DNA of 24,883 nucleotides, taken from a virus. Below are positions 239 through 22,498 of the stretch, piece after piece. Position 1 is the first letter of the stretch. Each line of letters starts with the position of its first letter. The position numbers and the translations under genes were made by a program. Where the stretch lies: the IMG/VR virus record IMGVR_UViG_3300008050_000019. The stretch is one strand, 5' to 3'. The notes below the pieces were generated by a model. It was not told the DNA's origin. It made no database searches and saw nothing but the letters and a program-made list of their open reading frames with translations.

Positions 239-919
239 TTATTTAACTACCTGTGCTATCATTTCAGCGCGTTGGACGCGCTCTTCAATAACATCCCACC
301 TTAATTCACGCATCATGTTCTCTATATAACCGTTCTTGTTGTCGAGATAGTCTTTGTAATATGAATGTGCCCAAACATCTAATACTACGATCGGAAAGCA
401 CCCTACGGGAATATGTTTACTATCACCATCAATCATAACATTGATGTATCTCCTAAGAAATGTATCATAAACTGTTACTGCCCAACCTTCGTCTGCTGAG
501 GCAGCGCATGCCATAAAGTCCCACTGCCAATCATCGAATGTGCCGAAACTAGCTGCCAGCTTCATGTATGTGATTGAATCGTATGAAATTTCACTTCTAA
601 TGTCACTTATGTTAGAGAAATACATTTCATGCAGCATAACAGAATTTCTATGTCTCATTTCTAGTGCTTTTAACGTTCGAAACTCAGACATGTTATGGTT
701 GGCAGCTTCTCTATCAGCAGTGTCAAGTTCAGCACTAACTTCATTTAAAGCCTGTATCCGCTCTTTATATAACTTAATATGCGTCTGCTTAGTTTTTGCG
801 CTTAGCAACTCTGTATTTAGATCATATGACTTTTCTGACGCGACATACGATTCACTTAAAGGCTTATCAATCTTTAGGTCTTTTTTAATGCCTGCTAATA
901 TATCTTTTCTTGTTACCAT
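239..919 (-). CDS. Fe/Mn superoxide dismutase-like protein
   Basis: C-terminal LDVWAHSYYKDYLDNKNGYIENMMRELRWDV matches the SOD DVWEHAYYLDY..RP.Y...W..V.W motif, including the Asp/His metal ligands. KLAASFGTFDDWQWDFMACAASADEGWAVTV matches SOD AASFGSFADFK..F...A...FGSGW.WLV. ANHNMSEF matches the NH..FW His-ligand region. The N-terminal HH..HH motif is degenerate (single His). Confidence 0.55.
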   Translation of the reverse strand: MVTRKDILAGIKKDLKIDKPLSESYVASEKSYDLNTELLSAKTKQTHIKLYKERIQALNEVSAELDTADREAANHNMSEFRTLKALEMRHRNSVMLHEMYFSNISDIRSEISYDSITYMKLAASFGTFDDWQWDFMACAASADEGWAVTVYDTFLRRYINVMIDGDSKHIPVGCFPIVVLDVWAHSYYKDYLDNKNGYIENMMRELRWDVIEERVQRAEMIAQVVK

Positions 920-3666: not shown

Positions 3667-3933
3667 TCATTTGTACAATAATAAAGTCTCCTTGATACGA
3701 GACTCCCTCGTCCTCACGTAGGGTAAAGCATTCATTAAAAAAATCCCGGTCAAGGGTAATAATTGTACTGCTGCCACCGTCGAAGGTAACCTCTTTGCAA
3801 CAATTAACACTTCTGTTGCGACGTTTTTAGGCCAATCTATTATAAGATCTCTACGCAAAATCATGTCGCCTTCGCACAATTGCGAAAACTTATTTTTAAA
3901 GAAGTTTTCTTGCGTGATAAAGTATCTATTCAT
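3667..3933 (-). CDS. Hypothetical small protein (88 aa)
   Basis: ATG at 3933 overlaps the dCMP deaminase stop by 8 nt (ATGAATAG), so it looks translationally coupled. It fills an otherwise 290-nt gap. No motif. The region is locally GC-richer. Confidence 0.3.
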   Translation of the reverse strand: MNRYFITQENFFKNKFSQLCEGDMILRRDLIIDWPKNVATEVLIVAKRLPSTVAAVQLLPLTGIFLMNALPYVRTRESRIKETLLLYK

Positions 3934-4321
3934 TTGTTTTAAACTTTCTTACAAAGATACCAGCAGCCTCTAGTCTATCAATACCATCCGTAATTCTGTA
4001 TTCGACATCATAAACAACTTCATCAATCTCTGCATTTATAATTTTCTTTGCACATTGATCACATGGACTGACTGTAAGATACATAATCTTCTCTTTATGA
4101 CTAGAAAAATCGCATTTGATTAGTGCATTCTCCTCAGCGTGTATTGTGCCGCTCTTGCCAGGTTCATCAGATTCGACCATGTTTGTTCCGCCCTTCTGAT
4201 CACCATTGTATCCAACTGCTAAGACTTGTGAATTATCGCCAGTAACGATAACACACCCAACCTTTGTTCTTGGATCAATTGATCTACTTGCCAAAAGACG
4301 AGCTGTCGACATCCAGATCAT
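3926..4321 (-). CDS. dCMP deaminase (zinc-dependent cytidine/deoxycytidylate deaminase family). Start placed at the internal ATG (M73 of the track ORF).
   Basis: HAEENAL and SPCDQCAKKI zinc-binding motifs (H[AC]E...PC..C). N-term RPSWDMIWMSTARLLASRS matches the canonical dCMP deaminase N-terminus. The longer track ORF (to 4537) would overlap the DHH gene by 250 nt, so an internal start at 4321 (or 4312) is preferred. Confidence 0.7.
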   Translation of the reverse strand: MIWMSTARLLASRSIDPRTKVGCVIVTGDNSQVLAVGYNGDQKGGTNMVESDEPGKSGTIHAEENALIKCDFSSHKEKIMYLTVSPCDQCAKKIINAEIDEVVYDVEYRITDGIDRLEAAGIFVRKFKTNE

Positions 4322-5222
4322 ATCCCAACTCGGACGAGCCGGTAAGTTGCTGTGCTCCTGAATCCTTAGTTTCAATTCGGAGGGTTTTAATTTGCTTTTT
4401 AAACAAGTCTTCGATGTTTCCTGAGTATTCAAAGCCTGCGATCTCCGCATGCCCTCCGCCTCCGAATCGCTTAGCGATCGAACCGCAGTCAATATGATCG
4501 TGGAAAGATCGTAAGCTAACTTTCGCATATTTCTCATTATGATCCCAATACCACACTATTGCATAATCGCAATCAGGCGCTAATCTCATGCCGACCTCAG
4601 ATATCCACTGAGTCGAGTTAACAACAAGAACACAATGCTCTTGCAGCTTACGCTTAACTGCCTTTGAGCATACTTTATCAATAGCAGCATCTGCGTAAGG
4701 TAAAATGTGTGAACCCTTTCTAATACAATCATCTACAACAGATGCATTCATCATTCTGTCATACGCTGGAAATTCTAGCGGGATCATATCAAAGGCTGTC
4801 GAGAATTCTTTTGAGTATTCCATATAGGGTTTCCAGCCCATATCTCTGTTTTCTATGAACTGCAGAAACCTTGGCGCAGGTATCCCTCGATGAAAATATT
4901 CCCATGCTAAAATTGCTCCGCTGTTGCCCAACTGAAACCAGTCTGGTTTAGCTATTCCATCTAGCATCATCATTGCTGACTTGTGGTGATCTCTCATTTC
5001 GAAATCTTCGGCAGTCGCAATTAAATGTTTTGTTATTTTTTTGTCATATGCAAAATCAAGAACGACGACACGCTTACCAGTCACGTCAGGTGGCGCTTTT
5101 CCATGAAAGGCTGCATGATATTCAGCCTTATTGCCAAGGACTTTCCATGCTGCCCATGCTGCGCCAAAACCATCAGAACAATTTCCATGATAAATAACGC
5201 AGTTGACAGATTTAGGGTCCAT
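4284..5222 (-). CDS. DHH-DHHA1 family phosphoesterase (NrnA/RecJ-like)
   Basis: Motif I YHGNCSDGFGAAWAAW (H.N.D.D..GA). DHH motif in FEMRDHHKSAM. DHHA1 GGGH motif in RFGGGGHAEIAGF. Confidence 0.65.
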   Translation of the reverse strand: MDPKSVNCVIYHGNCSDGFGAAWAAWKVLGNKAEYHAAFHGKAPPDVTGKRVVVLDFAYDKKITKHLIATAEDFEMRDHHKSAMMMLDGIAKPDWFQLGNSGAILAWEYFHRGIPAPRFLQFIENRDMGWKPYMEYSKEFSTAFDMIPLEFPAYDRMMNASVVDDCIRKGSHILPYADAAIDKVCSKAVKRKLQEHCVLVVNSTQWISEVGMRLAPDCDYAIVWYWDHNEKYAKVSLRSFHDHIDCGSIAKRFGGGGHAEIAGFEYSGNIEDLFKKQIKTLRIETKDSGAQQLTGSSELGYDLDVDSSSFGK

Positions 5223-5223
5223 A

Positions 5224-5805
5224 TTAGCCTACCTTCTTTAACAAGCCATTGACTGCTGTAATGTTACGCTTCCACATTTCATGATTTTTTTGCCAAGGGC
5301 TTGATTTAGTAGCTTTAATATCGGCATCAATCTCGTCCTTATAGTGTATATTCCTTGCATAGAATGCATCTGCAATCTCACGCTCAAGACCAAACTCTTT
5401 TTTAACGAATTGCGCAAAGCACATCATATTCACTCTGCGATAACTATCGCGAGCCTCTTGCCGCCACTTTTCGACTGTGTCAAGATACTCAGCCATTCTA
5501 TCTCTATTATAATGTGTGACAGTAACAGGTAGCTCAGTATCATTACACAATGCATCTTCAATAGACAACGTATGAATTATAACTTTTTCTCCGGCGGTAG
5601 TGATTTCAGCTCCAGTAACGTTGTAACATGCTTTGGAGTCATCTCTTTTTAAACGCTCATATGGGCCGTCATAATAGCCGTACTCATGTTGAACGAAGTA
5701 TATATCTGCCCCATTACAGTTACAATCTAGCTCACCTGATGGGTCTGCTTCTTGAAGTTGCTTATAAGCTCTTTTGTCTTCATCTAAAACCAATTCTTTT
5801 GCCAC
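5224..5805 (-). CDS. Hypothetical protein (193 aa)
   Basis: ORF tightly packed between the DHH gene and the endolysin. Cys pair CNCNG near the N-terminus. No family recognised. Confidence 0.5.
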   Translation of the reverse strand: MAKELVLDEDKRAYKQLQEADPSGELDCNCNGADIYFVQHEYGYYDGPYERLKRDDSKACYNVTGAEITTAGEKVIIHTLSIEDALCNDTELPVTVTHYNRDRMAEYLDTVEKWRQEARDSYRRVNMMCFAQFVKKEFGLEREIADAFYARNIHYKDEIDADIKATKSSPWQKNHEMWKRNITAVNGLLKKVG

Positions 5806-6632
5806 TTGACACCATTACGTTTCCATAACGGATATGATTTTAATTTTTTCAATTTATATGATTTTATCAATTCTGAGCCGAAAGTTACACCCTTTTTTAA
5901 GACATCTTCATTTTGGAAATGCCACCACTCTGCTGCCAGCGTATTTCCTTTCGAGAAAAATGACTTTCTTGCGCGGATACTCTTCCAGCCATTTTCTGCC
6001 ATAAGCTCAGTGATGTTAATATAATTTCCTGCAACGGAGATTTTTTTGTGTTCATAGGTGTACGCCTCCAGCTCTAAATATGTGCCTATAGGGTAATCAA
6101 CCCTAGCGTATACAGTCCACCTCCGGTGATCCTCGAGACTCTGGACAACAACATAAGGATCATTGTAAGGATCAACCATACCTGATTTTGTATGAAGATC
6201 ATGAGCAAGACCAAGATAATGAAGGCTCGTTTTACTTCTATTTTTGCCTACTGATGCACTTAGAAGTCTCCTTCCGCCATGAGATGTAAATAGCGCGCCT
6301 GCGCTCTGGATCGTGTCTCTTACTTTTGCTAATGAAGAAACTGCATCTTCCCTTATCCAGGTTTGATTTGCTCCAGATACTATTCCGCCAAGAACAAAAT
6401 CGTCGCATACAATTTTTTTGAACTTTAGCTTCTTCGAACTGGCCGGAGATTTACGTAATGCTCTAATAGTTAATGAACCAACAATACCATCAGCAACAAG
6501 CTTGTGCTTTCTTTGAAAGGCTCGAACTGCTGACTTTGTCGTAGGCCCCATTTGGTCGTCTAAGCGTAGCCGGTGGCCATGCTTATTCAACAATAATTGA
6601 ATCTCTCTTGTCTTCATTTTTCTACCAACCAT
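5784..6632 (-). CDS. Endolysin: N-terminal peptidoglycan-binding domain plus C-terminal M15 (VanY-like) zinc peptidase
   Basis: PG_binding_1-like LQ..LN..G..L..DG..G..T..AVRAFQ....L..DGIVG..T. M15 zinc-ligand motifs SLHYLGLAHDL (S.H..G.A.D) and AAEWWHFQ (EWWHF). Confidence 0.7.
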   Translation of the reverse strand: MVGRKMKTREIQLLLNKHGHRLRLDDQMGPTTKSAVRAFQRKHKLVADGIVGSLTIRALRKSPASSKKLKFKKIVCDDFVLGGIVSGANQTWIREDAVSSLAKVRDTIQSAGALFTSHGGRRLLSASVGKNRSKTSLHYLGLAHDLHTKSGMVDPYNDPYVVVQSLEDHRRWTVYARVDYPIGTYLELEAYTYEHKKISVAGNYINITELMAENGWKSIRARKSFFSKGNTLAAEWWHFQNEDVLKKGVTFGSELIKSYKLKKLKSYPLWKRNGVKWQKNWF

Positions 6633-7477
6633 TTAGTAAATTTAAAAGGCTCAGGTATGACAGAAAAATCAAGTTTCCTTAAAAACCTGACCTCATTTGG
6701 ACCTGATATCTTTGGACAATTTTCTACCACATAGACAGATTTTTTGTGTCTATGCAAAGGCCTTTCCTTAGTATCTCTTTCGATAAGCCTCTTTCCAGTA
6801 AGTTTTTGCAGCATATCAAAATGACGCTCGTAGACGTGAAATGAATCTGCTATATGAAAATAATCACCATACTCTAAACTTGGATAATACTCATGCAGTG
6901 CACATAACATCATTTCATGGATTATGCTGAATGTTGGAGCGTCATTGCCCATTCCGAAAATAGCATCTTGACTCCGCATATGAACAGACATATTCAGCTT
7001 GTTTTCTCTAATCCTGAAGTTCATTGAGTATGTACAAGGAACGTCCTTAGTTTCAGAAAAGAGATGCTTTTTATTTAACAAGACGATGCTTGCACGTCTT
7101 GAATCCCTATCACTCTTAAGTAAATTTAAAACATTATCAAACTGGTTTGTTTTCCCGAAAATGTATTGCCCATAATTCGAATTAATTGTACCATCATCAT
7201 TAACGATGTCACCCCAAATTTTTGCACTATCGATGATGCTTAAATCTCGTTTATCGCCCTTTAAATACCATTGCAGTTCCGTCTTAATATACTTAAGGCT
7301 GAGCTTTCTGTGCTCGAAGTTTTGAAACCTAACCCATGGGGGAAGTGTATAAGAATAGTTCTCTATTTCTAATACCTTCTGGCCTCGTGGTGAACAATAT
7401 TTTCCGTTCTTGTGAAGATCTTTGAAAATCTTTCTAAATGGTTTGCTGTGATAATTCTCTTCTTTTATTTTATTCAT
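6614..7477 (-). CDS. Thymidylate synthase-family enzyme, predicted deoxycytidylate 5-hydroxymethylase (Asp at the dUMP/dCMP specificity position)
   Basis: VPCTYSMNFRIRENKLNMSVHMRSQDAIFGMGNDAPTFSIIHEMM aligns without gaps to ThyA [41 protein letters not shown]. The catalytic Cys and Asp169 are conserved. Asn177 is replaced by Asp, exactly 31 residues after the Cys. Confidence 0.65.
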   Translation of the reverse strand: MNKIKEENYHSKPFRKIFKDLHKNGKYCSPRGQKVLEIENYSYTLPPWVRFQNFEHRKLSLKYIKTELQWYLKGDKRDLSIIDSAKIWGDIVNDDGTINSNYGQYIFGKTNQFDNVLNLLKSDRDSRRASIVLLNKKHLFSETKDVPCTYSMNFRIRENKLNMSVHMRSQDAIFGMGNDAPTFSIIHEMMLCALHEYYPSLEYGDYFHIADSFHVYERHFDMLQKLTGKRLIERDTKERPLHRHKKSVYVVENCPKISGPNEVRFLRKLDFSVIPEPFKFTKWLVEK

Positions 7478-8007
7478 TAATCTTCGCTGCCTTCTAAAAA
7501 TGGCATAATTTCGCTCAATTCTCTTTCTAGATCTTCATCGTCGACGTTAATTCTTTTAGTTTCACATGACGTCCAGGACTCAAAATCCGTATATAAACCA
7601 TCAAGCTTGACAAGCATTTCTTTATCAATTTCTTCGAATTGATCGGGACTGCATAATGCGTAGTCTTTCCTAGTGGGAATAATAATCTTTGCGCCGATTC
7701 CAGCATAGAGCCCATCAACCATGCGTAGAATATCTAGGTTTGTTTCCCTATTAAATGCTTGGCTATAGACCCACTCAGATGGGAATGAGCGATCTAAGAT
7801 TATTGATGCCTTTGTTTGCTGCAAGTAGCTTATAAAATATGGATCAGCATACTTTAATGCTTTCACAAAATAACCAGGATCAGCTTTAAAAAACTTTGAC
7901 TCTCTCTTATTCTTAAAATAGGGAATATCCAGCCTTTTTGATAGTTCTTGTGCGATGTTTGATTTACCGCATCTATCTGGGCCTTCGAATATTATTATAC
8001 GCTGCAT
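7477..8007 (-). CDS. dNMP kinase, thymidylate kinase-like (candidate 5-hm-dNMP kinase)
   Basis: P-loop FEGPDRCGKS. DRS(F) motif corresponding to the TMPK DRY motif. Start overlaps the hydroxymethylase stop (ATGA coupling). Confidence 0.6.
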   Translation of the reverse strand: MQRIIIFEGPDRCGKSNIAQELSKRLDIPYFKNKRESKFFKADPGYFVKALKYADPYFISYLQQTKASIILDRSFPSEWVYSQAFNRETNLDILRMVDGLYAGIGAKIIIPTRKDYALCSPDQFEEIDKEMLVKLDGLYTDFESWTSCETKRINVDDEDLERELSEIMPFLEGSED

Positions 8008-8039
8008 AAAGAATTATACACTATAATGTAATAAGTTAT

Positions 8040-9032
8040 CTATGTGTTACTTAGCTTTAGTATTTGTGCTAATTTCATATAAGCGACCTGTCGTGCTATA
8101 CCCACGTCTAAAGTGACTTTAGGTCTCCACTCCAATAATTCCTCCGCCTTTAATGGATTTGCTACGCTATATGACATTACGCCCTTCGGATAGCCATAAT
8201 CTGGATCGCCTGCATCAAGAAGGATATTTTTACCCACATTTTTTTCGATACAACACCGTAAATTAAATAACTTTGTGCTTTTTCCAGTGCCGACGTCGAT
8301 ATATTCATACCCAGAAACTGGTAGTTTGATGTCAAGTGCTGCACTTAGCGCATCGACACAGTCAGTGATGTAGATATAATCACGAACAGAGCCACCGTAA
8401 CATAATCCCTTAACAGGTATTTGCTCGATAGCTGACTCAATGAACTTTGACATGACCATATCACATCTCGACCTGGGACCATACACATTAAAGAGTCTTA
8501 GTGAAATAAACTCTATTCCGAAATTTGTGTTGTAAGTACGACCTAAAAGTTCACCTGACATCTTCGTCATAGCGAATACGCTTTCTGGGCGTGGTCTTAA
8601 TGATGGAAATGTTGTATCAGATCCCAGTACTGACGCATCAGAAGCAAAAATAACTCTCTTAACCGACGCTTCGCGACAAAATTCAAGGATGTTGTTGGTT
8701 CCTTCCACATTCACGCTTTGATATTCTAGCGGATAATCAAATGACTTACTCAAGCTTGCTTGTGCAGCAAGATGATAAACAACATCTACATCACTGAAGA
8801 GTTCTTTGATGTCGTCGTTTCTGATGTCTGCTGTATAAAGAGACATTCTATCTCGCTCAACCCCAGAAAGCCCAAGGTGAATATGTTTCTCGTTCAGTGT
8901 TTGTTCTGCAGTTCTGCCACCCAGAGTATCGTTAAAATTATCGATGCCAATAACTTCGTGCCCGGCCTCTAGTAGGGCTCTACATAAATGTGATCCTATA
9001 AACCCAGCATGCCCAGTTACGATTATTTTCAT
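8040..9032 (-). CDS. NAD-dependent epimerase/dehydratase (extended SDR, GalE-like). The catalytic Tyr of YxxxK appears replaced by Phe (FAMTK).
   Basis: N-terminal Rossmann motif MKIIVTGHAGFIGSHL. LRLFNVYGP matches GalE LRYFNPVGA. The segment aligned to PYGKSK reads VFAMTK. Confidence 0.65.
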   Translation of the reverse strand: MKIIVTGHAGFIGSHLCRALLEAGHEVIGIDNFNDTLGGRTAEQTLNEKHIHLGLSGVERDRMSLYTADIRNDDIKELFSDVDVVYHLAAQASLSKSFDYPLEYQSVNVEGTNNILEFCREASVKRVIFASDASVLGSDTTFPSLRPRPESVFAMTKMSGELLGRTYNTNFGIEFISLRLFNVYGPRSRCDMVMSKFIESAIEQIPVKGLCYGGSVRDYIYITDCVDALSAALDIKLPVSGYEYIDVGTGKSTKLFNLRCCIEKNVGKNILLDAGDPDYGYPKGVMSYSVANPLKAEELLEWRPKVTLDVGIARQVAYMKLAQILKLSNT

Positions 9033-10138
9033 AATGAATGACCTTCAGTTATAAACTCAACGACAGAGTCGACATGAAAATCATGCTGTCTTTGCAGGTG
9101 ATACCGTTGCTCTTCGACAATTTCCTGCCTATTAGCAAGTGACATGTTACGAAGAAGTCTGATTCTATCCATGACGTCAGATGTTTTTTCCACAGTCCAC
9201 AGTGCGCCAAGTAAATTACTTTCTTTAAAAGTATGCGGAACCATCGCGGGACAGTTTACTGCAAGTGCTTCTAAATATCTCGGTGACATAAAACCCACCT
9301 CATAATATCTGGGCTTCGAGATGTGTGTAGTACAAATAAATTTATTTAACATTTTCATAGAATCAAAGAAGTTCATCCTATGATTAAACGCAACTTCTCG
9401 ATGTGTTGATATTAATGCTGTTGGCCGAGGGCGCTCGGGTGATGACTGTAGCCAGTTGCCATACATCGCAGTCTGAATGCCAGCTATCCGTGTACTTTGT
9501 TTTAAGTTAAAGAAATAATTTTCAAACTCATCGTCTCTTTCGTAATTATTTCCAATATATCCATATATCGGATATGGATCTGCAGTAGGCAACATTTCTT
9601 TCCAGTCTGTCCAGAATGGTAGCGAGACCCTATCCCGCGTTAAACGATTCGTCTCAAATGACGGGTCAGCGATGATAAGATTTGGCCACTTTTCTTCGTC
9701 TTTTGCCGTCAGCTTCAAGTCTGTATCCCAAACGATAATGGGGATTTTATCATGATAGTATGCTAGCAGGGCACACTGTCTATCAAGATCGGCCTCATAC
9801 TTGAGGGGATCATACTTCGGGTGAGTTTTGTCATTTTTGTATGTGGACCATCTCCACTCCATAAAGATGACATCAAGGTCAGGATAGTATTCTTTCTTAA
9901 TGGCAACTTCATTTCCATTTTTCTGGACGTGCACATTCGGGAAACCTTCTAATGGATAAATAGCACCAGCGAAGTGCGTTTCTTCTCTTCTTGGTTGCAG
10001 CAAATATAACATGTTACCTTGATCAACAACTTCTTGCATGAACAGCTTACGACCATATCGGTGCCCATCAGGAGTGTCTAATTGGTGACCAGGACGCATT
10101 GCATCCCAAACGCCATGGTAAGAAAATCCGACTTTCAT
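9029..10138 (-). CDS. Hypothetical protein (369 aa), possibly a transferase. Contains VWDTDLK (DxD-like) but no confident family assignment.
   Basis: Long ATG ORF coupled to its neighbours within the sugar/nucleotide gene block. Confidence 0.5.
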   Translation of the reverse strand: MKVGFSYHGVWDAMRPGHQLDTPDGHRYGRKLFMQEVVDQGNMLYLLQPRREETHFAGAIYPLEGFPNVHVQKNGNEVAIKKEYYPDLDVIFMEWRWSTYKNDKTHPKYDPLKYEADLDRQCALLAYYHDKIPIIVWDTDLKLTAKDEEKWPNLIIADPSFETNRLTRDRVSLPFWTDWKEMLPTADPYPIYGYIGNNYERDDEFENYFFNLKQSTRIAGIQTAMYGNWLQSSPERPRPTALISTHREVAFNHRMNFFDSMKMLNKFICTTHISKPRYYEVGFMSPRYLEALAVNCPAMVPHTFKESNLLGALWTVEKTSDVMDRIRLLRNMSLANRQEIVEEQRYHLQRQHDFHVDSVVEFITEGHSL

Positions 10139-10530
10139 AGTTTACCTTCTATCATGCTAATTGTGTCCTCAAAAATGGGTGATGGCCAATTACCTGGTGT
10201 AATCCACTCCCATTCACCATCGACTTTTTCTGGTTCCATGACTCTTGGAATTCCTTCCCGATTATAACACCTGTAGTATATAGTAACATACTCTTTTTGA
10301 ATCTCTTCAAAAAAATGTAAATTTATCCCTACACGCTTTAGATCTGTAACAATAAGCCCAGTCTCTTCGTATACTTCACGAATTGCTGCAGCACAAGCAA
10401 ACTCGTCAGGATCAACTGAGCCGCCGGGTAAGGCCCATTCACTTGACCCATGTGAACCTTTACGCTTATGCATTAATACTTGTCCAGAGCTATTAACAAT
10501 TGCAATTGCCGTGCCGACGGCGACTTTCAT
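10135..10530 (-). CDS. Nudix hydrolase. Start set at the in-frame ATG (M4 of the TTG-initiated track ORF).
   Basis: Nudix box GGSVDPDEFACAAAIREVYEETGL matches G.5E.7REU.EE.GU. Confidence 0.7.
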   Translation of the reverse strand: MKVAVGTAIAIVNSSGQVLMHKRKGSHGSSEWALPGGSVDPDEFACAAAIREVYEETGLIVTDLKRVGINLHFFEEIQKEYVTIYYRCYNREGIPRVMEPEKVDGEWEWITPGNWPSPIFEDTISMIEGKL

Positions 10531-10535
10531 TTGAC

Positions 10536-11051
10536 TCAAAATACTTTTACCCCAGTTAGATCATACGAGCTAAATACAGATTTGCGTGACGATGGTGGCT
10601 TCCGCCTAATCTGCCTGGGTTTCGGGAGTGTAAACTCTACACCTCTGCCGACCCTTCCCCCTTGGCCAAAATAATTAAGCCAATATCTACCTTTTCGCAC
10701 TGGAATTCCCTGGCTAGTAAGTATCGCAACATCAAGCCAGTGTAGTTCTCTATTGTTAACTATTACGCCAGTATTTCCTGAGGAGGCATTTCTATGCAGG
10801 CGCGCAGACGAAAGCCCAGGCCTAATGAACCCTATCGTTGGACCTCCTGAGTGGCCCCATGCACCAGTCATGCTATCATACCAGACTTCGCCACAAGCGA
10901 GCTTCATACTAAGCTGTTTTTCTAATGACGAAATCTGTCGCTGGCTAAGTCTTACTTTATTGACTATTACATGACAATTTTCACATGCTGCATATAACGG
11001 GCTTAAAAGAAGGGCGGCGCCAAGTGTTGCACTTAACAGTATTTTATTCAT
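10536..11051 (-). CDS. Secreted or lipoprotein-like protein with a GHSGGP motif. Start at the ATG (M8 of the GTG-initiated track ORF). Signal peptide MNKILLSATLGAALLLSPLYAAC.
   Basis: N-terminal hydrophobic signal sequence ending AAC. GHSGGPT resembles the serine-protease GDSGGP motif. The gene is visibly GC-richer than the rest of the window. Confidence 0.5.
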   Translation of the reverse strand: MNKILLSATLGAALLLSPLYAACENCHVIVNKVRLSQRQISSLEKQLSMKLACGEVWYDSMTGAWGHSGGPTIGFIRPGLSSARLHRNASSGNTGVIVNNRELHWLDVAILTSQGIPVRKGRYWLNYFGQGGRVGRGVEFTLPKPRQIRRKPPSSRKSVFSSYDLTGVKVF

Positions 11052-11421
11052 TATCCATAAACTCTCTGGCACGACTCAGCTCAGTAATCGTGCCTTTCCA
11101 AAAGCGCCCACAACAACTACAAAAAAGATCCATATCTTCTTTGTGCCATCGTGCGGCGACATCTTCGCGATGGCACTCAGCAATAGGCATTAAACAAGTT
11201 GAACAACATTCAGCCTCATCCTGTGATTGCTTAAGCCCTGATTTCATTGTGGACTGTTTTAGTATATTCAGCGTTTCTCCTGATAAACCCATGAGAACAT
11301 CATGTATCCTGGCTTCAAGTTTGTCCAAAGGCAGCGCTTCATAGTCTACGTCATTTCTCTGTTTACTTAATTTTAGGAGCTCATGTGATATTGCAGTAAC
11401 TGCATCATCTAAAGCGTTCAT
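11044..11421 (-). CDS. Cysteine-rich zinc-finger protein (possibly DksA/TraR-like). Start at the ATG overlapping the upstream stop (ATGA).
   Basis: CCSTC...CH...CSCC cluster near the C-terminus, preceded by a helical region (LDKLEARIHDVLMGL). Confidence 0.45.
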   Translation of the reverse strand: MNALDDAVTAISHELLKLSKQRNDVDYEALPLDKLEARIHDVLMGLSGETLNILKQSTMKSGLKQSQDEAECCSTCLMPIAECHREDVAARWHKEDMDLFCSCCGRFWKGTITELSRAREFMDNE

Positions 11422-12431
11422 CAGAAAAGCCTTTCTTTCCACGTTCGTGGCAATTGTGCATTATGAATCTCAATAGGCAAGTGATATTTAAATTTTTGTG
11501 TGCCTCGTTGCTTAACATAGTTAACAATTGATTCTAAACCCTCATTTAATGTTGTCTTTGTTTCATATCCGAACCTTTCTCTAATTTTGTTTGCTGAGCA
11601 TGTTGCTAGCATAACTTCACAGGGTCGTGCTTTATGATACTCGATATCAAGCTTAAAATCTAGTATGGAGGCGATCCTATCGGCTAATTCATTAATAGTA
11701 ACAAACTCTTCGTCTGGGCCGATATTAAACTTCTCACCATGAACTTTTAAATCACAATCAATCAGCCTTGTTAAAACGAACAAATCATCGTTAACAAAAC
11801 TAAAGCATCTTTTTTGGTTTCCATCGCCGTAAACGATTGGCTGACGCCCTTGAAGCATTAAATTAGTCATTATGGATGCCACATTTCTGAAGGGATCATC
11901 ATACTTTTGGCGTGGACCAATAATATTATGGGGAATGGCATGGACAACTTCAAAGCCATGAATTCTACCCAGCAGATCAAGCTGCATCTCAGCTGCATAT
12001 TTCGCAACGCCATAAGGGTCTTCAGGAGATGGCTGCATTGATTCAGTAAATGGAACTTTATTCGCACCGTATCTTGCCATCGAAGAGCAATTAATGAACC
12101 TTTTTACCCCTGAGTTTATCCCAGCTGTCGCTAATGTAACAGTCCCGGTAACGATGTTGTCAGTAATTAATGCTGGACTAAAAACTGACAGCCCTTCATA
12201 TGCTAACGCTGCTGTGTGGAAAATAACATCACATCCAGCAGTCAGCTCCGTCATTAGCTCTAAATCTCTTACATCGCCCGTATGAAACTCATGCTTGCTA
12301 TTTTGTATGATATTATCATCATACCCGCCTATCATACTATCTACACTAACTACACTATGTCCTAAAGACAATAGTTCCTCAATTAGCCATGAACCAAGGA
12401 AGCCTGCGCCTCCAGAAACCATAATTTTCAT
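11421..12431 (-). CDS. NAD-dependent epimerase/dehydratase (extended SDR; sugar-nucleotide dehydratase or decarboxylase-like)
   Basis: MKIMVSGGAGFLGSWL Rossmann motif. Intact catalytic PYGVAKYAAE (YxxxK). The track ORF starts 6 codons earlier (12449); the MKIMVSGG start is preferred. Confidence 0.65.
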   Translation of the reverse strand: MKIMVSGGAGFLGSWLIEELLSLGHSVVSVDSMIGGYDDNIIQNSKHEFHTGDVRDLELMTELTAGCDVIFHTAALAYEGLSVFSPALITDNIVTGTVTLATAGINSGVKRFINCSSMARYGANKVPFTESMQPSPEDPYGVAKYAAEMQLDLLGRIHGFEVVHAIPHNIIGPRQKYDDPFRNVASIMTNLMLQGRQPIVYGDGNQKRCFSFVNDDLFVLTRLIDCDLKVHGEKFNIGPDEEFVTINELADRIASILDFKLDIEYHKARPCEVMLATCSANKIRERFGYETKTTLNEGLESIVNYVKQRGTQKFKYHLPIEIHNAQLPRTWKERLF

Positions 12432-12489
12432 ATTTATATTATACCACATATGTGAATGCAGTTTACAATAAGTTATATAAAATTTATTC

Positions 12490-13218
12490 TTACTGTGGAA
12501 GACGAGCTGATAGCTTCATACACTTAATTGACGTTTTTTCGTCGAAATAAACTTTAGCTTTGTACGTACGATATTGCCATTGGAGTCTATTTCGAGTGCG
12601 ATACCATTCACTTCCCTCTATTTCAAAACTAAGCTCAATTTTTATTTTTCTTACAAAATCAGGACCATCCCTATATTTTGGCCCATAGAATGCACCAAGT
12701 TCAAAACGAGGAGGTACGACACCCACAGCTCTTTGAAGCATACATTCATCAGCTACCCTAATTTCATTTACGCAGTCGATGAATTTATCTTTATGGGAGT
12801 GCATCAAGCCTGCTCGCAGAATGTCACACTCAATTTTTGATGCTGCTCTGTCAGCAGGGGTCTTTGCTCCTTTTTTTGGGACTGCTGTGACCTTCACAGC
12901 CTCGAGGCCATCAACGTCACAAAGAGATACCCAGAATCTAACATCAGCAACAGGCTCACCGGGGTAAGAGACGAGCCTGAATGTGATTGAATCAAATTCT
13001 TCTGCATTTTTCCTGATATAATACCTATCGAATACAAGCACACTGTCTGCTAGCAATTTTACTGTTTGTGGTTTATCTCGGTGTGGCCATGCAAGAAATG
13101 GATTCTTTGTTTTAAGAAAATCCCATAAGGTTGCATTTCTGTTCTCATTATGAAGTGAAAAAAACCAATCATACCTTAACTTGATATTAGTTCCGAGCTT
13201 CGGAACACAAATCTTCAT
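12490..13218 (-). CDS. Hypothetical protein (242 aa)
   Basis: ATG ORF. No family recognised. Confidence 0.5.
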   Translation of the reverse strand: MKICVPKLGTNIKLRYDWFFSLHNENRNATLWDFLKTKNPFLAWPHRDKPQTVKLLADSVLVFDRYYIRKNAEEFDSITFRLVSYPGEPVADVRFWVSLCDVDGLEAVKVTAVPKKGAKTPADRAASKIECDILRAGLMHSHKDKFIDCVNEIRVADECMLQRAVGVVPPRFELGAFYGPKYRDGPDFVRKIKIELSFEIEGSEWYRTRNRLQWQYRTYKAKVYFDEKTSIKCMKLSARLPQ

Positions 13219-13533: not shown

Positions 13534-13740
13534 TTACAAACCGCTTATGATCATCTTTTTGTGTAAAAAAAGATCAGGTGAATGCAAGTAGTTGCATGTT
13601 TTGCATGCCCATGTATAATTAGCCTTGCTGCGGCTTGGAGTCCAGGGTTCAACATTACCTGACCTATCAAATGCATTATGGCCAAACTTACAAGGGTCAT
13701 CCCACCACTGCTGTAAATAATGAAACAACCTTTTTAGCAT
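13534..13740 (-). CDS. Small zinc-ribbon-like protein (68 aa), paralog of 13225..13482. Start at the ATG overlapping the upstream TAA (TAATG).
   Basis: QQWWDDPCKFGHNAF...WACKTCNYLHSPD. The track ORF begins at an upstream TTG. Confidence 0.45.
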   Translation of the reverse strand: MLKRLFHYLQQWWDDPCKFGHNAFDRSGNVEPWTPSRSKANYTWACKTCNYLHSPDLFLHKKMIISGL

Positions 13741-14579
13741 TAGACTTTTGAAAATAACCAAGGACGTGCATTCCAACCATGGCCAAGGTTATTCCACCCT
13801 CTCTTGTTTAGTCCATCTCTAAATGGCTTACCTACGCGTGTATTCTTGACAATTTTTCCGTCGACATCGGATGTCAGGAAATGGCCGAGTGTAAAGTATC
13901 TATTTTCTGCAGACCAGCAGCTTGCATGCAACAACTTGGCATCGTCTGTGGCATGAGCAAGAACCTTATCAAGCTCAGTAAATACATCACCTACGCCTTT
14001 ATGGCCCACTTTAGCGATATGTTCAACGATTTCGTAGGCTTGAATAACGTCGTATTTACCCTCAGCAGAAGGAACATGTTTCAGGTTAGTTAATCCTGAT
14101 AGATTTTTAAAATATTTAAAAATTTCAACTAGCTCCGCATTGATTTCGCAGTAGTGTACTTCGGCATTAGGGAAGTTTTTAGCCAAAATTATTGAAGAAA
14201 ACCCGGGGCCTGCACCCCAGTCGAAGATTCTCTTAGGATCATTAAACCCATTATCTCTTAACAGCTTAATCCCCCCACATGTAGTTGCGTGAGTCTGGCA
14301 TGTTGAAACCCCCAAAGAATCCCACTTGTAATTCGGGTGTGAATACAGCCACGCAGGATCACGTGTAGTTTTCCATTGCTCAAATAAAGCTTCTGCTGAG
14401 GGCTGCATATACTGCCGAAGTGTACTAAGATCGTCTGGATTCTTAAGTCGCCAATGTTTGGCGAACTCAGCTTCTGACATACCAAGTTTTGTTTTAGCAT
14501 ATTCACTAATTGCACCTTGCAAACCCGCATTGTTATTAACACCGAGTGATTTACATAAGCCGATCGTCTTTATTTTCAT
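13740..14579 (-). CDS. Class I SAM-dependent methyltransferase (not a DPPY/NPPF-type DNA amino-methyltransferase)
   Basis: Motif I IFDWGAGPGFSS followed by the acidic motif II (HYCEIN). Confidence 0.6.
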   Translation of the reverse strand: MKIKTIGLCKSLGVNNNAGLQGAISEYAKTKLGMSEAEFAKHWRLKNPDDLSTLRQYMQPSAEALFEQWKTTRDPAWLYSHPNYKWDSLGVSTCQTHATTCGGIKLLRDNGFNDPKRIFDWGAGPGFSSIILAKNFPNAEVHYCEINAELVEIFKYFKNLSGLTNLKHVPSAEGKYDVIQAYEIVEHIAKVGHKGVGDVFTELDKVLAHATDDAKLLHASCWSAENRYFTLGHFLTSDVDGKIVKNTRVGKPFRDGLNKRGWNNLGHGWNARPWLFSKV

Positions 14580-15623: not shown

Positions 15624-17246
15624 TTATCTCATTTTGTCTTTTACTTTTTTGAGTACTGTGGCCCTGTCTTGCCTGTACTTCTCCTTGTTTTTTAATGTTT
15701 TGCTAGCTCTTAATTCAAGCTGTGATCGTGGAAATTCTGTTGTCCACCGTTTTAGGATGTCATCTGGAGTATCTCTTTTGCCAGCCAGCGTCATTTGAAT
15801 CATGGAGTCTTTACTAGCGTCTGCTTTATCAGCTAAAACACGTATAACATCAGGTGTTAAACTTAGATTATATACTACGCTCATTCTCACTTCCCTAGAA
15901 TGATCACCTGCTAAAGCGAGAAGTATAGATTCAGATGCTAAATTATTTGCTGCTACTTTTCTTCTAACAAGCTCTGATGAATCACTTGCTAAAGTGTTAA
16001 GTATCTCTAAAGAGACTTTCTGATTACTTGCAGTCGTGGCTCTAACTATTTCATCTTCAGCCGTCGAAAGGCTTTCCAGCACGTCAATAGGCGTGTTGAT
16101 ATTTATTGCGAGATGATCTTTTACATAAGTGTTATCAGATGATAACGCACGAAGAGTAGATTGCCCCGTCCGATGATTAAGCGCGACCATGGCTCGGACG
16201 TCGTCCGAATCATCATTTTTAAGCATATCGAGTACCTCAGGAGAAGCATTCCAGCTATCTGCTACGGCCCGTCTAACTTCTTCGTCTGTAGAACTAGCAG
16301 CTTTAACAAGACGCTCATGTGAAGATACTTTAACGTAATCGGTGACTTCTGGCGAAAACTTATACTCTTTCTTGCCCTCTAATGTATCAAGCAGATCAAA
16401 AAATGCATCATATCGAAGCCCGCTGGTAAACTTTTTGAACCTTGGAACAGACGTAATCGCTTTCTTAACGTCTCTTAAAGCAGGATGCTCATGATTCTTT
16501 TTTGTATGATTTTTAATCGCAGTACTAATCTCATCCCAATCGTCACCAAAAGCATCATAAAATTTAAACTTCTTATTGTTATGATCAACTGTTGTTTCAT
16601 TCGGCGCGGATGGTTGAATAACTCCGCCCTTAACGCCAATTGACCACTTCTTCTTCGTATTGTGTTTATCAATTACATAGAAAAGAATTGTATTGTTTAA
16701 AATGTAACTATAAAATAGATTCTCGCCCTTTGTTCTTGCAGTACACCAAACCGTACCACGTCCAATAGAGCATGATGCGTCAACACTTCTTGGCATAAAT
16801 ACAACAAAGTCCTCGGATTCATAAATGTTATCCGCGTCCTTGGCTGCAGCATCATGATCTATCTTAGAGTCTCCAGGAAGCTCTTCAAGCTTCCGGTGGA
16901 GATCGCCAGGTGTCTTATAATTGTTAATATCAGCGTCTTTACCTTTAAGTTTCTGCTTGTTTTTAGCCTTATCAAATGAAATAATGAGAGGTGAAATGTC
17001 TCTGAGAGGTTCATTATTTGAACGTGAAACACGTTCAAGCCACATAAGATATTGCTTTAATTTAGCTTGAGGAAGAACTTGAAGTTTTCCGAAGACTTCA
17101 TCCCATTCTTCTGGAGCCCTGTTAGACTTTTCTTTGATATCATCAATGGTACCCTCACTAAGAAGCTTAATTGCATATTCTAAAAGTTTGTTTTCGCTAG
17201 AGGCACCAGAGATCATCTCTCTAAGTTCAGAAATTTTGACAAGCAT
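15624..17246 (-). CDS. Leucine-rich-repeat-variant (LRV)/HEAT-like repeat protein (540 aa). Its N-terminal ~85-aa domain is duplicated at 24361..24690.
   Basis: C-terminal ~23-aa repeats of the form D...VR..VA.N......L..LA.D. N-terminus MLVKISELRE...EEWDEVFGKLQVLPQAKLKQYLMWLERVSRSNNEPLRD is ~70% identical to the upstream fragment. Confidence 0.6.
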   Translation of the reverse strand: MLVKISELREMISGASSENKLLEYAIKLLSEGTIDDIKEKSNRAPEEWDEVFGKLQVLPQAKLKQYLMWLERVSRSNNEPLRDISPLIISFDKAKNKQKLKGKDADINNYKTPGDLHRKLEELPGDSKIDHDAAAKDADNIYESEDFVVFMPRSVDASCSIGRGTVWCTARTKGENLFYSYILNNTILFYVIDKHNTKKKWSIGVKGGVIQPSAPNETTVDHNNKKFKFYDAFGDDWDEISTAIKNHTKKNHEHPALRDVKKAITSVPRFKKFTSGLRYDAFFDLLDTLEGKKEYKFSPEVTDYVKVSSHERLVKAASSTDEEVRRAVADSWNASPEVLDMLKNDDSDDVRAMVALNHRTGQSTLRALSSDNTYVKDHLAININTPIDVLESLSTAEDEIVRATTASNQKVSLEILNTLASDSSELVRRKVAANNLASESILLALAGDHSREVRMSVVYNLSLTPDVIRVLADKADASKDSMIQMTLAGKRDTPDDILKRWTTEFPRSQLELRASKTLKNKEKYRQDRATVLKKVKDKMR

Positions 17247-17273: not shown

Positions 17274-18329
17274 TTATGACAGTTCTGTCATTGACTTAAT
17301 TTTCCAAATTGTCGTAGCAAAACCAAAATCACTTTTATCAATTTCACCCATGTATGCCGTATTAAGCTCTGGCATCGGATGCTTATCAGGATGCCATCCC
17401 CAGCAATAACATCTGTGTTTTTTGCCAGTTGGTCCCATGATATTAAGCAACAAATAAGGCTTCTTCGTCTTTGTTACTTTTTTAATAGCTTCATCTAAAA
17501 TAAACCAGTGCAGCCCTTTCTTCTTATAGTCATCGATAGTAGGAACGCCGATTTTATCTAACCTTGTTCTGACTTTATCTGAAATTATTAGACTGAGATC
17601 GGTTGACCCAACAAGCTCCTTCAGTTGTCTAATCCATGTAGGCTTATCCCACTCAACAACACCTTGAGACTCTTGTAGGCGACGTTCAAAAACATCACGC
17701 CCTTTCTTTACAGATTTAAGCTTGTGAAGCTGTAAATCAGAATCTTCATAGTCATTGCCCGTCAACACATCAAACATCTGATGATAGTTAGAAAATGTCT
17801 TTCCTTCGCCCACAATACCTGTCGAGTCAAATGCACCTATCTGGATCAGATGTTGCATGGCGCGTTTGTTAAATTTTGAATGTTTCCAGCTTCCGTCTTC
17901 ATTCCATAACAAATCATGAACAGAGTTATAGGGCCTGTTTTCTATAATTTCGTCAACAGCCGCTTCACCCACTGCCTTCACAGTCAAAAATGACGGCATG
18001 AACTTTTTGCCAGGCATTATAGTCCATTTTTTTGTTGCGTGGTTAATATCGACCTTCGTTATTTCATAGCCGAATGCACGTAGTTCACCAATTGCCTTCG
18101 ATCGCTTATCAGGATGGCTAGATTGAGTCTCCATATATGCACATAGCCACTCTGATTCAAAGTGCGTAAGAAGCCAGGCGCACATATACGAATCGATTGC
18201 GTAAGATACAGCATGTGAATTAGACGTTAACAATCCATTGGCAAGATAGAATTGATGATCTGGGTGGTCAACTTCAAGATCATATGCTTGATGTTTTCCG
18301 ATGGATTTAAATGATTTAATTTTAGGCAT
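17274..18329 (-). CDS. dnaE: DnaE-type (Pol III alpha) polymerase C-terminal fragment, preceded by a split-intein C-half (intein-C, 37 aa)
   Basis: N-term MPKIKSFKSIGKHQAYDLEVDHPDHQFYLANGLLTSN matches the Ssp DnaE-c [36 protein letters not shown] (blocks F/G; terminal Asn; +1 Ser). The following SHAVSYAIDSYMCAWL..GYEITKVDIN...VKAVGEAAVDEIIENR...IQIGAFD matches DnaE KSHAAAYALVSYQTAWLK...ILPPDIN...AIKGVGEGPIEAI...SGAFD. Confidence 0.8.
   Translation of the reverse strand: MPKIKSFKSIGKHQAYDLEVDHPDHQFYLANGLLTSNSHAVSYAIDSYMCAWLLTHFESEWLCAYMETQSSHPDKRSKAIGELRAFGYEITKVDINHATKKWTIMPGKKFMPSFLTVKAVGEAAVDEIIENRPYNSVHDLLWNEDGSWKHSKFNKRAMQHLIQIGAFDSTGIVGEGKTFSNYHQMFDVLTGNDYEDSDLQLHKLKSVKKGRDVFERRLQESQGVVEWDKPTWIRQLKELVGSTDLSLIISDKVRTRLDKIGVPTIDDYKKKGLHWFILDEAIKKVTKTKKPYLLLNIMGPTGKKHRCYCWGWHPDKHPMPELNTAYMGEIDKSDFGFATTIWKIKSMTELS
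18219..18329 (-). mobile_element. Split intein, C-terminal half (intein-C) of the DnaE intein
   Basis: See the parent CDS: block F DLEVDHPDHQFYLANG, terminal ..TSN, +1 Ser. Confidence 0.75.
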
Positions 18330-22252: not shown

Positions 22253-22498
22253 TTAAGCATGGTTAACCTCGGTTTGCTCTATGTGATCAATAACATCATT
22301 AACGTGAACAAATTTTTTATCAAACTTTTCATGTGAATAATATTCCCCGTGATGCATATTAGCTGGATTCCACGCCCATCCGGCACGCTTAATCTTACGC
22401 TTTTTCATTTGAAGTGAATAGGCTGGCAAATTGCCTATGACGGTGACAACTCCTGTAATAGCAGCTATTGCACTTAATATTATACCTAATTCAACCAT
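22253..22498 (-). CDS. Small membrane protein (81 aa, N-terminal TM segment)
   Basis: MVELGIILSAIAAITGVVTVIGNLPAY. ATG start overlaps the upstream gene's end. Confidence 0.5.
   Translation of the reverse strand: MVELGIILSAIAAITGVVTVIGNLPAYSLQMKKRKIKRAGWAWNPANMHHGEYYSHEKFDKKFVHVNDVIDHIEQTEVNHA

Follow-up and report, generated by a model that had tools for sequence, protein, structure and literature searches.

Predicted folate-dependent deoxycytidylate 5-hydroxymethylase of the thymidylate synthase family and its glycosyltransferase-linked gene module in a lineage of large phages

The viral DNA stretch IMGVR_UViG_3300008050_000019 of the IMG/VR collection, which was analyzed over its full length of 24,883 nucleotides (the window), contains on the minus strand an open reading frame (ORF) at positions 6614..7477 whose product of 287 amino acids, with an ATG start, belongs to the thymidylate synthase (TS) family. 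The deduced protein, referred to as the query in the following, is probably a folate-dependent deoxycytidylate (dCMP) 5-hydroxymethylase that catalyzes the reaction of gp42 of phage T4 (EC 2.1.2.8). An earlier note, made from the DNA sequence alone, had described a TS-family enzyme at these coordinates, and the Pfam profile Thymidylat_synt (PF00303) detected it there with an E value of 3e-24 and a score of 86 bits (cutoff 24.3). An assignment as canonical ThyA failed, as the best NCBIfam equivalog match reached 75.5 bits where the cutoff is 327, and all ThyA cutoffs were missed by more than 250 bits. The protein is a divergent member of a well-known kind of enzyme, and the anti-restriction strategy that its conserved gene cluster probably serves, the attachment of a sugar to the modified base, is likewise known, while the phage lineage is new.

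The segment encoded by positions 6941-7045(-), DVPCTYSMNFRIRENKLNMSVHMRSQDAIFGMGND, could be aligned free of gaps with the counterpart segments of T4 gp42 (MSDFMCT...RSNDVVFGFRND) and of Escherichia coli ThyA, the latter beginning with MALAPCH. The cysteine nucleophile of the TS fold is retained as Cys148 (Cys148 in T4, Cys146 in E. coli), and its distance to the Asp or Asn residue that reads the base amounts to 31 residues in all three proteins (148-179 in the query and T4 gp42, 146-177 in E. coli ThyA). The register was checked by phmmer against the sequences of the PDB, by a MAFFT alignment with seven reference enzymes and by a MAFFT alignment with 119 further homologues. All three alignments gave the same gapless register and Foldseek concurred, which bears out the earlier alignment running from the Cys residue to GMGNDAPTF. 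Since the alignments are gapless, Asp179 corresponds to ThyA Asn177 and T4 Asp179, and Thr149 occupies the site of ThyA His147, so that the ThyA motif PCH reads PCT in the query, as had been noticed before; T4 gp42 likewise has Thr at this site (MCT). The comparison with T4 gp42 and E. coli ThyA proposed in the earlier note thus gave one register by Foldseek and MAFFT, and the inclusion of more homologues, which it had suggested as a means of exposing a shifted register, left the alignment gapless and the Asp residue invariant. The residues Asp145, Cys148, Thr149, Asp171 and Asp179 were invariant in all 119 homologues of the MAFFT alignment, and the exchange of Asn177 for Asp is therefore not a chance substitution. 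The respective codons are located on the minus strand at 7180-7178 (Ser100), 7045-7043 (Asp145), 7036-7034 (Cys148), 7033-7031 (Thr149), 6967-6965 (Asp171) and 6943-6941 (Asp179).

The fold of the query agrees with this alignment. An AlphaFold2 model was obtained with a predicted local distance difference test (pLDDT) value of 93, and a Foldseek search of the PDB with this model yielded cytosine hydroxymethylases as top matches, led by the CMP hydroxymethylase MilA (E 9e-19). The T4 dCMP hydroxymethylase (1B5D, 1B5E, 6A9A) was matched with template modelling (TM) scores of 0.75-0.78 at 26-28% identity, and it was also the best PDB sequence match by phmmer (E 3.5e-19).

Mutagenesis of ThyA and of the T4 enzyme has established that Asn at ThyA position 177 confers specificity for uracil and Asp specificity for cytosine (PMC8670742, PMC6400193), in agreement with the role that the earlier note had ascribed to this Asp residue. 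In the MetaGPA study, positions 177 and 147 showed the strongest association with cytosine-modified contigs (PMC8670742), and these are the same two positions that had been singled out from the sequence of ORF 6614-7477, with Asp at 177 and Thr at 147. A hydroxymethylase signature deduced from the ternary complex of the T4 enzyme comprises an Asp or Glu residue three positions before the catalytic Cys (ThyA Leu143) and a Ser-x-Tyr motif; the T4 variants D145N, S94A/N and Y96F are impaired in the formation of 5-hydroxymethyl-dCMP (5hm-dCMP), and D179N shows an about 3600-fold lower kcat and weaker dCMP binding (PMC6400193). The query residues Asp145 and Ser100-Asn101-Tyr102 match T4 Asp145 and Ser94-Asn95-Tyr96 and are invariant in the 119 homologues. 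Accordingly, Asn, Leu and His at the ThyA positions 177, 143 and 147 are replaced by Asp, Asp and Thr. All signature residues are identical to those of T4 gp42, in the region 145-179 even by residue number, and the correspondence extends to the catalytic Glu (Glu67 in the query, Glu60 in T4), to Arg168-Ser169 and to the His/Tyr pair at 214/216 (216/218 in T4). The folate site is retained as in T4, with Tyr63, Glu67, Trp88, Asp171, Phe174, Tyr216 and Arg218, whereas the folate-tail contacts Asn53, Arg59 and Arg177 of the T4 enzyme are represented by Ser60, Thr66 and Gly177. Every published residue criterion places the query among the predicted folate-dependent dCMP 5-hydroxymethylases. The full signature and its invariance argue for 5-hydroxymethyldeoxycytidine rather than thymine or 5-hydroxymethyldeoxyuridine chemistry, as had been proposed.

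Sequence distance was determined by BLAST comparisons with characterized enzymes, in which SPO1 gp29 scored 88 bits, T4 gp42 84, E. coli ThyA 66, RB69 gp48 53 and the XP12 enzyme 47; the two nearest enzymes are both hydroxymethylases. Two further cytosine products, 5-methyl- and 5-hydroxydeoxycytidine, had not been weighed in the earlier note, and both are disfavoured by the residues of the query. The TS homologues RB69 gp48, DLP3 gp80 and RL38J1 gp216, among others, were reported in a 2026 Nucleic Acids Research paper to be flavin- and O2-dependent 5-hydroxy-dCMP synthases (PMC13326640), and a query of this type would provide 5-hydroxycytosine (hoC) as the sugar attachment point. These enzymes share with the query the TS fold, Asp177, an acidic residue at position 143 and Thr147, and the hoC phages DLP3, RB69 and RL38J1 possess the same kind of module, in which the TS homologue is combined with a YorR-like kinase, sugar-nucleotide enzymes and GT-B glycosyltransferases that match the same PDB templates. 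We nevertheless regard such an activity as improbable, as the diagnostic Asn residue of the hydroxylases at ThyA position 169 (D169N; PMC13326640) is not present in the query, which has RSQD at the site where the same alignment shows RSQN for RB69 gp48; Asp171 is invariant in the 119 homologues. RB69 gp48 moreover carries Ala, Val, Phe and Asn at the positions of T4 Trp82, Phe174, Tyr218 and Asp171, whereas the query keeps Trp88, Phe174 and Tyr216, and its BLAST score is below those of T4 gp42 and SPO1 gp29. Because Asp169 and the folate-binding aromatic residues are kept, the predicted product is the hydroxymethyl and not the hydroxyl derivative. It is quite improbable that the query is a dCMP methyltransferase of the XP12 type, in which the methylene group would be reduced by the hydride of tetrahydrofolate instead of being hydrated, giving 5-methyl-dCMP. 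The Asp177 residue by itself suffices for ThyA to methylate dCMP (literature in PMC8670742), and the enzyme of XP12, a phage with 5-methylcytosine (5mC) in its DNA, also has Ser-x-Tyr and Asp169. It differs, however, by Asn143 and Pro147 from Asp145 and Thr149 of the query, which are as in T4 gp42, although this signature is a weak test as it stems from one reference sequence. Asp145 can be tied to hydration because the T4 variant D145N is impaired in 5hm-dCMP formation (PMC6400193), the solvent-shielding Trp83 of ThyA is replaced by Ile91 in the query and by Val85 in T4, and the XP12 enzyme is the most distant reference. Furthermore, 5mC offers no hydroxyl acceptor, which the conserved neighbouring glycosyltransferase needs.

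A uracil-nucleotide enzyme, either a divergent thymidylate synthase or a deoxyuridylate (dUMP) hydroxymethylase of the SPO1 gp29 type yielding 5-hydroxymethyl-dUMP, would fit the top BLAST score of gp29, the partial alignment of its C-terminal part with that of the query, the score of 129 bits for the gp29-type PHROG 5131 next to 144 bits for the general PHROG 160, and a nearby dCMP deaminase that could supply dUMP. It is extremely improbable in view of Asn177 in both SPO1 gp29 and ThyA as opposed to Asp in the query and in 119 of 119 homologues; gp29 has Asp143 in common with the query and additionally differs by Asn147 and by a one-residue insertion before position 177. The severe effect of D179N in the T4 enzyme, the missed ThyA cutoffs and the separate canonical Td of the closest isolate, Ralstonia phage RsoM2USA, likewise stand against a uracil substrate. 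Hydroxymethylation of another cytosine nucleotide, such as cytidylate (CMP) in the case of MilA, or a C5 chemistry as yet undescribed, is very improbable. MilA is the top structural match, and the query belongs to an uncharacterized clade whose conserved C-terminal extension, about 60 residues long, is missing in T4 gp42. In MilA, Ala176 and Lys133 favour CMP, and the exchanges A176S and K133R shift the enzyme towards dCMP (PMC6400193); the alignment with MilA places Ser169 and Arg127 of the query at these sites, which is the deoxyribonucleotide type, and the genomic context is that of DNA replication and deoxynucleoside monophosphate metabolism.

Several points weigh against the dCMP 5-hydroxymethylase assignment. 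The identity to T4 gp42 is just 27-32% and about equal to that to the dUMP hydroxymethylase SPO1 gp29, and the product call therefore depends on the signature residues and the gene context rather than on close homology. The PHROG scores of the query are nearly equal, and this classification cannot split the functional classes, as ThyA, gp42, the XP12 enzyme and RB69 gp48 are all contained in phrog_160. The predicted product hangs on a handful of diagnostic residues known from few characterized enzymes, and the step from Asp169 to the exclusion of a hydroxylase is a reverse inference drawn mainly from T4 gp42, since the rule was validated on the enzymes with Asn. Context alone cannot separate 5-hydroxymethylcytosine (5hmC) from hoC because the module architecture is the same in DLP3, RB69 and RL38J1. 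Finally, the assignment of the adjoining ORF 7477-8007 as a nucleotide kinase is weak.

For the favoured dCMP 5-hydroxymethylase, we infer the substrate, cofactor, product and catalytic steps from T4 gp42 and ThyA. Cys148 would attack C6 of dCMP, which would be held by Asp179, Arg168/Ser169 and Arg127/Arg128, with Asp179 reading and protonating the N3/N4 face of the cytosine. Glu67 would open 5,10-methylene-tetrahydrofolate bound by Tyr63, Trp88, Asp171, Phe174 and Tyr216, the one-carbon unit would be joined to C5, and elimination of tetrahydrofolate would leave an exocyclic methylene intermediate. A water molecule placed by Asp145 and Ser100 would then hydrate this intermediate, instead of its being reduced, to give 5hm-dCMP. 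The translationally coupled YorR-like kinase would convert 5hm-dCMP to the diphosphate, a nucleoside diphosphate kinase of the host would form the triphosphate, and the phage polymerase would incorporate it into DNA. The 5hmC residues would finally be glycosylated by the GT-B enzyme with a nucleotide sugar tailored by one or both of the neighbouring short-chain dehydrogenases/reductases (SDRs). More speculatively, a Nudix hydrolase may deplete dCTP, and the dCMP deaminase may balance dCMP and dUMP for a separate thymidylate synthase.

The genes of the module region are all located on the minus strand and are tightly packed. The gene at 7477..8007 encodes a P-loop nucleotide-kinase-like protein of 176 amino acids that matches PHROG 761 'thymidylate kinase' (E 8e-12) and the YorR structures 2axp/3kb2 (E 6e-4), and its stop codon overlaps the start of the TS-homologue gene by one nucleotide (TAATG junction). 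Its product is 34% identical to RB69p045, the nucleotide kinase of the RB69 cytosine-modification cluster; YorR-like 'nucleotide kinases' are present in the clusters of DLP3, RB69 and RL38J1 (PMC13326640). The earlier note had cited the adjacent kinase and the dCMP deaminase in support of its proposal. The adjacent gene is real, and so is the deaminase, the gene of which is found three genes (about 2.1 kb) downstream and not directly beside the TS homologue. The deaminase was also dropped as an argument for 5hmC, because phages whose TS homologues form different products carry one, as exemplified by XP12 with 5mC and by Xp15. T4, the DNA of which contains 5hmC, carries a dCMP deaminase as well.

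Upstream of the kinase gene, the gene at 8040..9032 (-) encodes SDR1, an NAD-dependent nucleotide-sugar epimerase/dehydratase of 330 amino acids (Pfam Epimerase, E 3.5e-50; PHROG 540, E 1e-64), for which GalE is the best NCBIfam match with 128 bits, under the cutoff of 262. The SDR1 gene overlaps by 4 nucleotides the gene at 9029..10138 (-), which codes for a protein of 369 amino acids with a weak match to Pfam Glyco_trans_1_2. An AlphaFold2 model of this protein (pLDDT 90) and the Foldseek search identified a GT-B-fold glycosyltransferase, with tll1591, BshA, MshA and the T4 beta-glucosyltransferase 1C3J (E 4.6e-9) as matches in the PDB. The templates 3mbo, 7fg9, 8x3q, 6kih and 5ze7 are shared with the reported DNA glycosyltransferases of DLP3 and RL38J1. 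BLASTP revealed no significant similarity to the T4 beta-glucosyltransferase, and the link to this enzyme exists at the fold level only. A tblastn search detected no homologue of the glycosyltransferase in 50,697 isolated phage genomes; it has 181 homologues, at least 11 of which occur on contigs that also encode a TS homologue. This family is uncharacterized, has been seen only in metagenomes and represents the most novel part of the locus. The protein may act as a DNA 5hmC glycosyltransferase, as suggested by its modelled fold and its position. In published work, 5hmC was shown to be glycosylated by phage glycosyltransferases that work with an epimerase, and frequent linkage of ThyS and GT-B enzymes was described (bioRxiv 2023.12.21.572611).

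The glycosyltransferase gene in turn overlaps by 4 nucleotides the gene at 10135..10539 (-) for a Nudix hydrolase of 134 amino acids (Pfam NUDIX, E 2.3e-18; MutT-type structure 4kyx, E 1e-18; NUDT15, E 5e-10), which might act as a (d)NTP pyrophosphatase, removing dCTP and providing dCMP. A second nucleotide-sugar epimerase/dehydratase, SDR2 with 342 amino acids, is encoded at 11421..12449 (-) and was recognized by Pfam Epimerase (E 5.7e-41); the NCBIfam matches to LegB and to dTDP-glucose 4,6-dehydratase-like proteins are both under cutoff. Within the module, SDR2 represents the sugar-tailoring partner that is conserved. Taken together, the GT-B family and one or two dedicated SDRs might place a non-glucose sugar, epimerized, 6-deoxy or otherwise tailored, on 5hmC, an undescribed cytosine hypermodification that we put forward as conceivable yet rather doubtful. 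The phages concerned would be widespread large metagenomic phages, including some from Tara Oceans, with a soil Ralstonia phage as nearest cultured relative and with replication of the DNA polymerase III (Pol III) alpha type.

Downstream of the TS homologue, the gene order comprises a peptidoglycan-binding protein, a protein of 186-193 amino acids, a DHH/DHHA1 phosphoesterase and the dCMP deaminase. The phosphoesterase of 312 amino acids is encoded at 4284..5222 (-) and matches PHROG 4771 (E 9e-55) and Pfam DHHA1 (E 1e-6); it is conserved together with the TS homologue and possibly plays a role in nucleotide or oligonucleotide salvage. The zinc-dependent dCMP deaminase is located at 3926..4537 (-), with a longest ORF of 203 amino acids, and was detected by Pfam dCMP_cyt_deam_1 (E 1e-21) and PHROG 174 (E 1e-43).

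The protein encoded by ORF 6614-7477 was found in identical form on the metagenomic contig k141_306648 of ENA entry ERZ27249009, which comprises 308,593 bp, and on shorter contigs. Its family of TS homologues has at least 900 members, many of which are located on contigs of 100-300 kb. A megablast search with positions 3900-11100 against 50,697 phage genomes gave zero matches, indicating the absence of a close sequenced relative at the DNA level. The module consisting of kinase, GT-B, SDR, TS, DHHA1 and deaminase genes recurs on the related large phage contigs L014, L015 and L017 and is present in rearranged form in L011 and L016. L014 and L015 are syntenic, with the order TS, lysozyme/peptidoglycan-binding protein, DHHA1 and dCMP deaminase, followed by a superoxide dismutase (SOD) gene; upstream, they contain a kinase, a glycosyltransferase and an SDR2 with 56-58%, 49-52% and 71-73% identity to the respective proteins of the window. 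In L011 and L016, kinase, TS homologue and deaminase are kept along with other tailoring genes. The most compact version of the module is that of L017, a 201-kb Tara Oceans contig, in which the genes for DNA Pol III alpha, kinase (51% identity), glycosyltransferase (46%), SDR, TS, SDR, thymidine kinase (TK) and DHHA1 (37%) follow each other, with a dCMP deaminase gene at a later position. The TS homologue of L017 is 38% identical to the query and shows the same Asp/Cys/Thr/Asp/Asp and Ser-x-Tyr signature. With respect to the single components, kinase orthologues with 40-58% identity are encoded next to the TS homologue or in its vicinity in L011 and L014 to L017, and the glycosyltransferase adjoins it or is encoded within about 3 kb in L014, L015 and L017. 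Orthologues of the DHH protein are 65-67% identical in L014 and L015, and in L016 a DHHA1-domain gene is located directly upstream of the TS homologue according to Pfam, yet without a tblastn match to the DHH protein of the window. The deaminase orthologues are about 50% identical in L011 and L014 to L016, and the deaminase of L017, located downstream of the module, was detected by Pfam. An orthologue of the Nudix hydrolase was not found in L011 or in L014 to L016.

The nearest cultured relative of the query is ORF10 of the Ralstonia jumbo phage RsoM2USA, annotated as 'putative thymidylate synthase', which is 60% identical and has the identical signature. A dCMP deaminase gene is located two genes from ORF10, and RsoM2USA also encodes a separate canonical Td (ORF473), a dihydrofolate reductase and a nucleoside triphosphate pyrophosphatase, a two-paralogue arrangement like that of T4 (RsoM2USA paper). 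The 16-kb neighbourhood of ORF10 contains no detectable homologue of the 369-amino-acid glycosyltransferase or of the kinase, and neither DNA modification nor a hydroxymethylase annotation is reported in the RsoM2USA paper. Outside the jumbo-phage clade, the closest relatives from isolated phages are the TS homologues of Xp15 (Xanthomonas) and of HHU4 and MD-2021a (Acinetobacter), with 39-41% identity. They have the Asp/Cys/Thr/Asp/Asp signature, a similar C-terminal extension and an adjoining dCMP deaminase, but the tailoring enzyme of these phages, encoded close to the TS homologue, is a putative carbamoyltransferase, in contrast to the GT-B enzyme and SDRs of the window. The one carbamoyltransferase that has been assayed, from a metagenomic contig with a TS homologue, is specific for 5hmC and gives 5-carbamoyloxymethylcytosine (PMC8670742). 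In comparison with T4, the query is likewise linked to a GT-B glycosyltransferase gene, with a dCMP deaminase also present. The two systems differ in that the kinase is YorR-like and not of the T4 gp1 type, the glycosyltransferase is without sequence similarity to the T4 beta-glucosyltransferase, and the query is encoded on a contig of jumbo-phage size (about 300 kb) that specifies DNA Pol III alpha-type domains.

If the assignment is correct, a lineage consisting of RsoM2USA-like phages and uncultured relatives, whose genomes measure about 150-310 kb, would replace cytosine by (glycosyl-)5hmC. This would explain resistance to restriction enzymes and to clustered regularly interspaced short palindromic repeats (CRISPR) systems, would imply a bias in the sequencing and assembly of these phages, and would correct the 'thymidylate synthase' label of hundreds of metagenomic proteins and of RsoM2USA ORF10. 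The locus moreover provides a natural contrast to the 5-hydroxycytosine pathway, with the same module architecture and a different residue at position 169 and cofactor site, and is useful for gauging how diagnostic these residues are. The uncharacterized glycosyltransferase family represented by ORF 9029-10138 is a candidate DNA-modifying enzyme.

Additional features were observed in the TS homologues themselves. The C-terminal extension of the query (residues 228-287) is conserved in its clade with the motif CPxISGPxEV...F.F..WL and was modelled with pLDDT values of 95-98 from about residue 250. It is common to RsoM2USA and Xp15 and is found in part in SPO1 gp29, whereas T4 gp42, RB69 gp48 and ThyA are without it. 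At least nine close homologues with 59-71% identity and lengths of 413-470 amino acids (P0002, P0004, P0006, P0012, P0013, P0018, P0024, P0030 and P0036) possess an in-frame N-terminal extension of about 125-180 amino acids before the TS domain, several of them with Pfam NUMOD3. The extension of P0002, the only sequence of this set that was inspected, resembles a GIY-YIG/NUMOD3 homing endonuclease ('GFVYRWTN..GKWYIGSH'). These extensions may be genuine fusions, or gene calling may have joined the TS gene to a homing-endonuclease gene that had inserted immediately before it, and they are reminiscent of the mobile elements targeting T4 td.

The start of the deaminase gene deserves comment. The 203-amino-acid ORF and the 3' end of the DHH gene share 254 nucleotides. 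On near-identical contigs the deaminase was called with 128-131 amino acids; these calls begin at Met73 or Met76 and lack the residues 'RPSWD' (68-72). The Pfam match begins at residue 70, and because the domain begins near residue 68, the real start is probably located downstream of 4537. Translation probably begins at a non-ATG codon within the DHH gene, in which case the two genes would truly overlap. The deaminase of L015 was called with 151 amino acids and overlaps the DHHA1 gene of this locus by 38 nucleotides.

Among the remaining genes near the module, that at 5784-6632 (-) encodes an endolysin-like PG_binding_1 protein of 282 amino acids and overlaps the 3' end of the TS-homologue gene by 19 nucleotides. 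L014 and L015 carry a Phage_lysozyme gene at this position, so that the nucleotide-metabolism block stably contains a lysis-type gene. The gene at 10536-11072 (-), which overlaps the Nudix gene by 4 nucleotides and is translationally coupled inside the putative modification operon, specifies a protein of 178 amino acids with a hydrophobic, signal-peptide-like N-terminus and no family match. Just past SDR2, a protein of 242 amino acids without annotation (12490-13218, -) and a weakly S-adenosylmethionine-methyltransferase-like protein of 279 amino acids (13740-14579, -; Pfam E about 1e-4) are encoded, which could be part of the sugar-tailoring set or unrelated to it. Extra genes for an SDR, a DegT aminotransferase and a GNAT acetyltransferase are located near the module in L014 (16805-19467) and L015 (18210-20801), and L016 has an RGP/GT75-like protein at 16067-17218; these differences suggest that the members of the lineage tailor different sugars. 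None of the NCBIfam families could be assigned specifically to the kinase, the glycosyltransferase, the DHH protein or the 242-amino-acid protein, a PADLOC analysis of nine neighbourhood proteins returned nothing meaningful, just weak P-loop and Nudix matches, and the tRNA and Rfam scans of the window yielded no matches.

With respect to the outer parts of the window, a protein of 226 amino acids with the C-terminal domain of Fe/Mn superoxide dismutases is encoded at 239-919 (-), and L011, L014 and L015 carry conserved counterparts with 43-55% identity downstream of their deaminase genes. The ORF at 17274-18329 (-) with 351 codons contains just the HHH_6 domain of DNA Pol III alpha. In the relatives L011, L014, L016 and L017, the PHP, pol3_alpha and finger domains are distributed over separate neighbouring genes or joined in one fusion protein of 1149-1199 amino acids, and the split Pol III alpha of L011 shows a weak intein match. 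Replication in this phage lineage relies on a Pol III alpha replicase of the bacterial type, which is sometimes split. Finally, two proteins that are unusual for a phage are encoded in the window, a protein of 540 amino acids with HEAT/LRV repeats (15624-17246, -) and a protein of 340 amino acids with both a zinc-finger DNA-binding region of the ROS/MucR type and a RAP domain (22491-23513, -).

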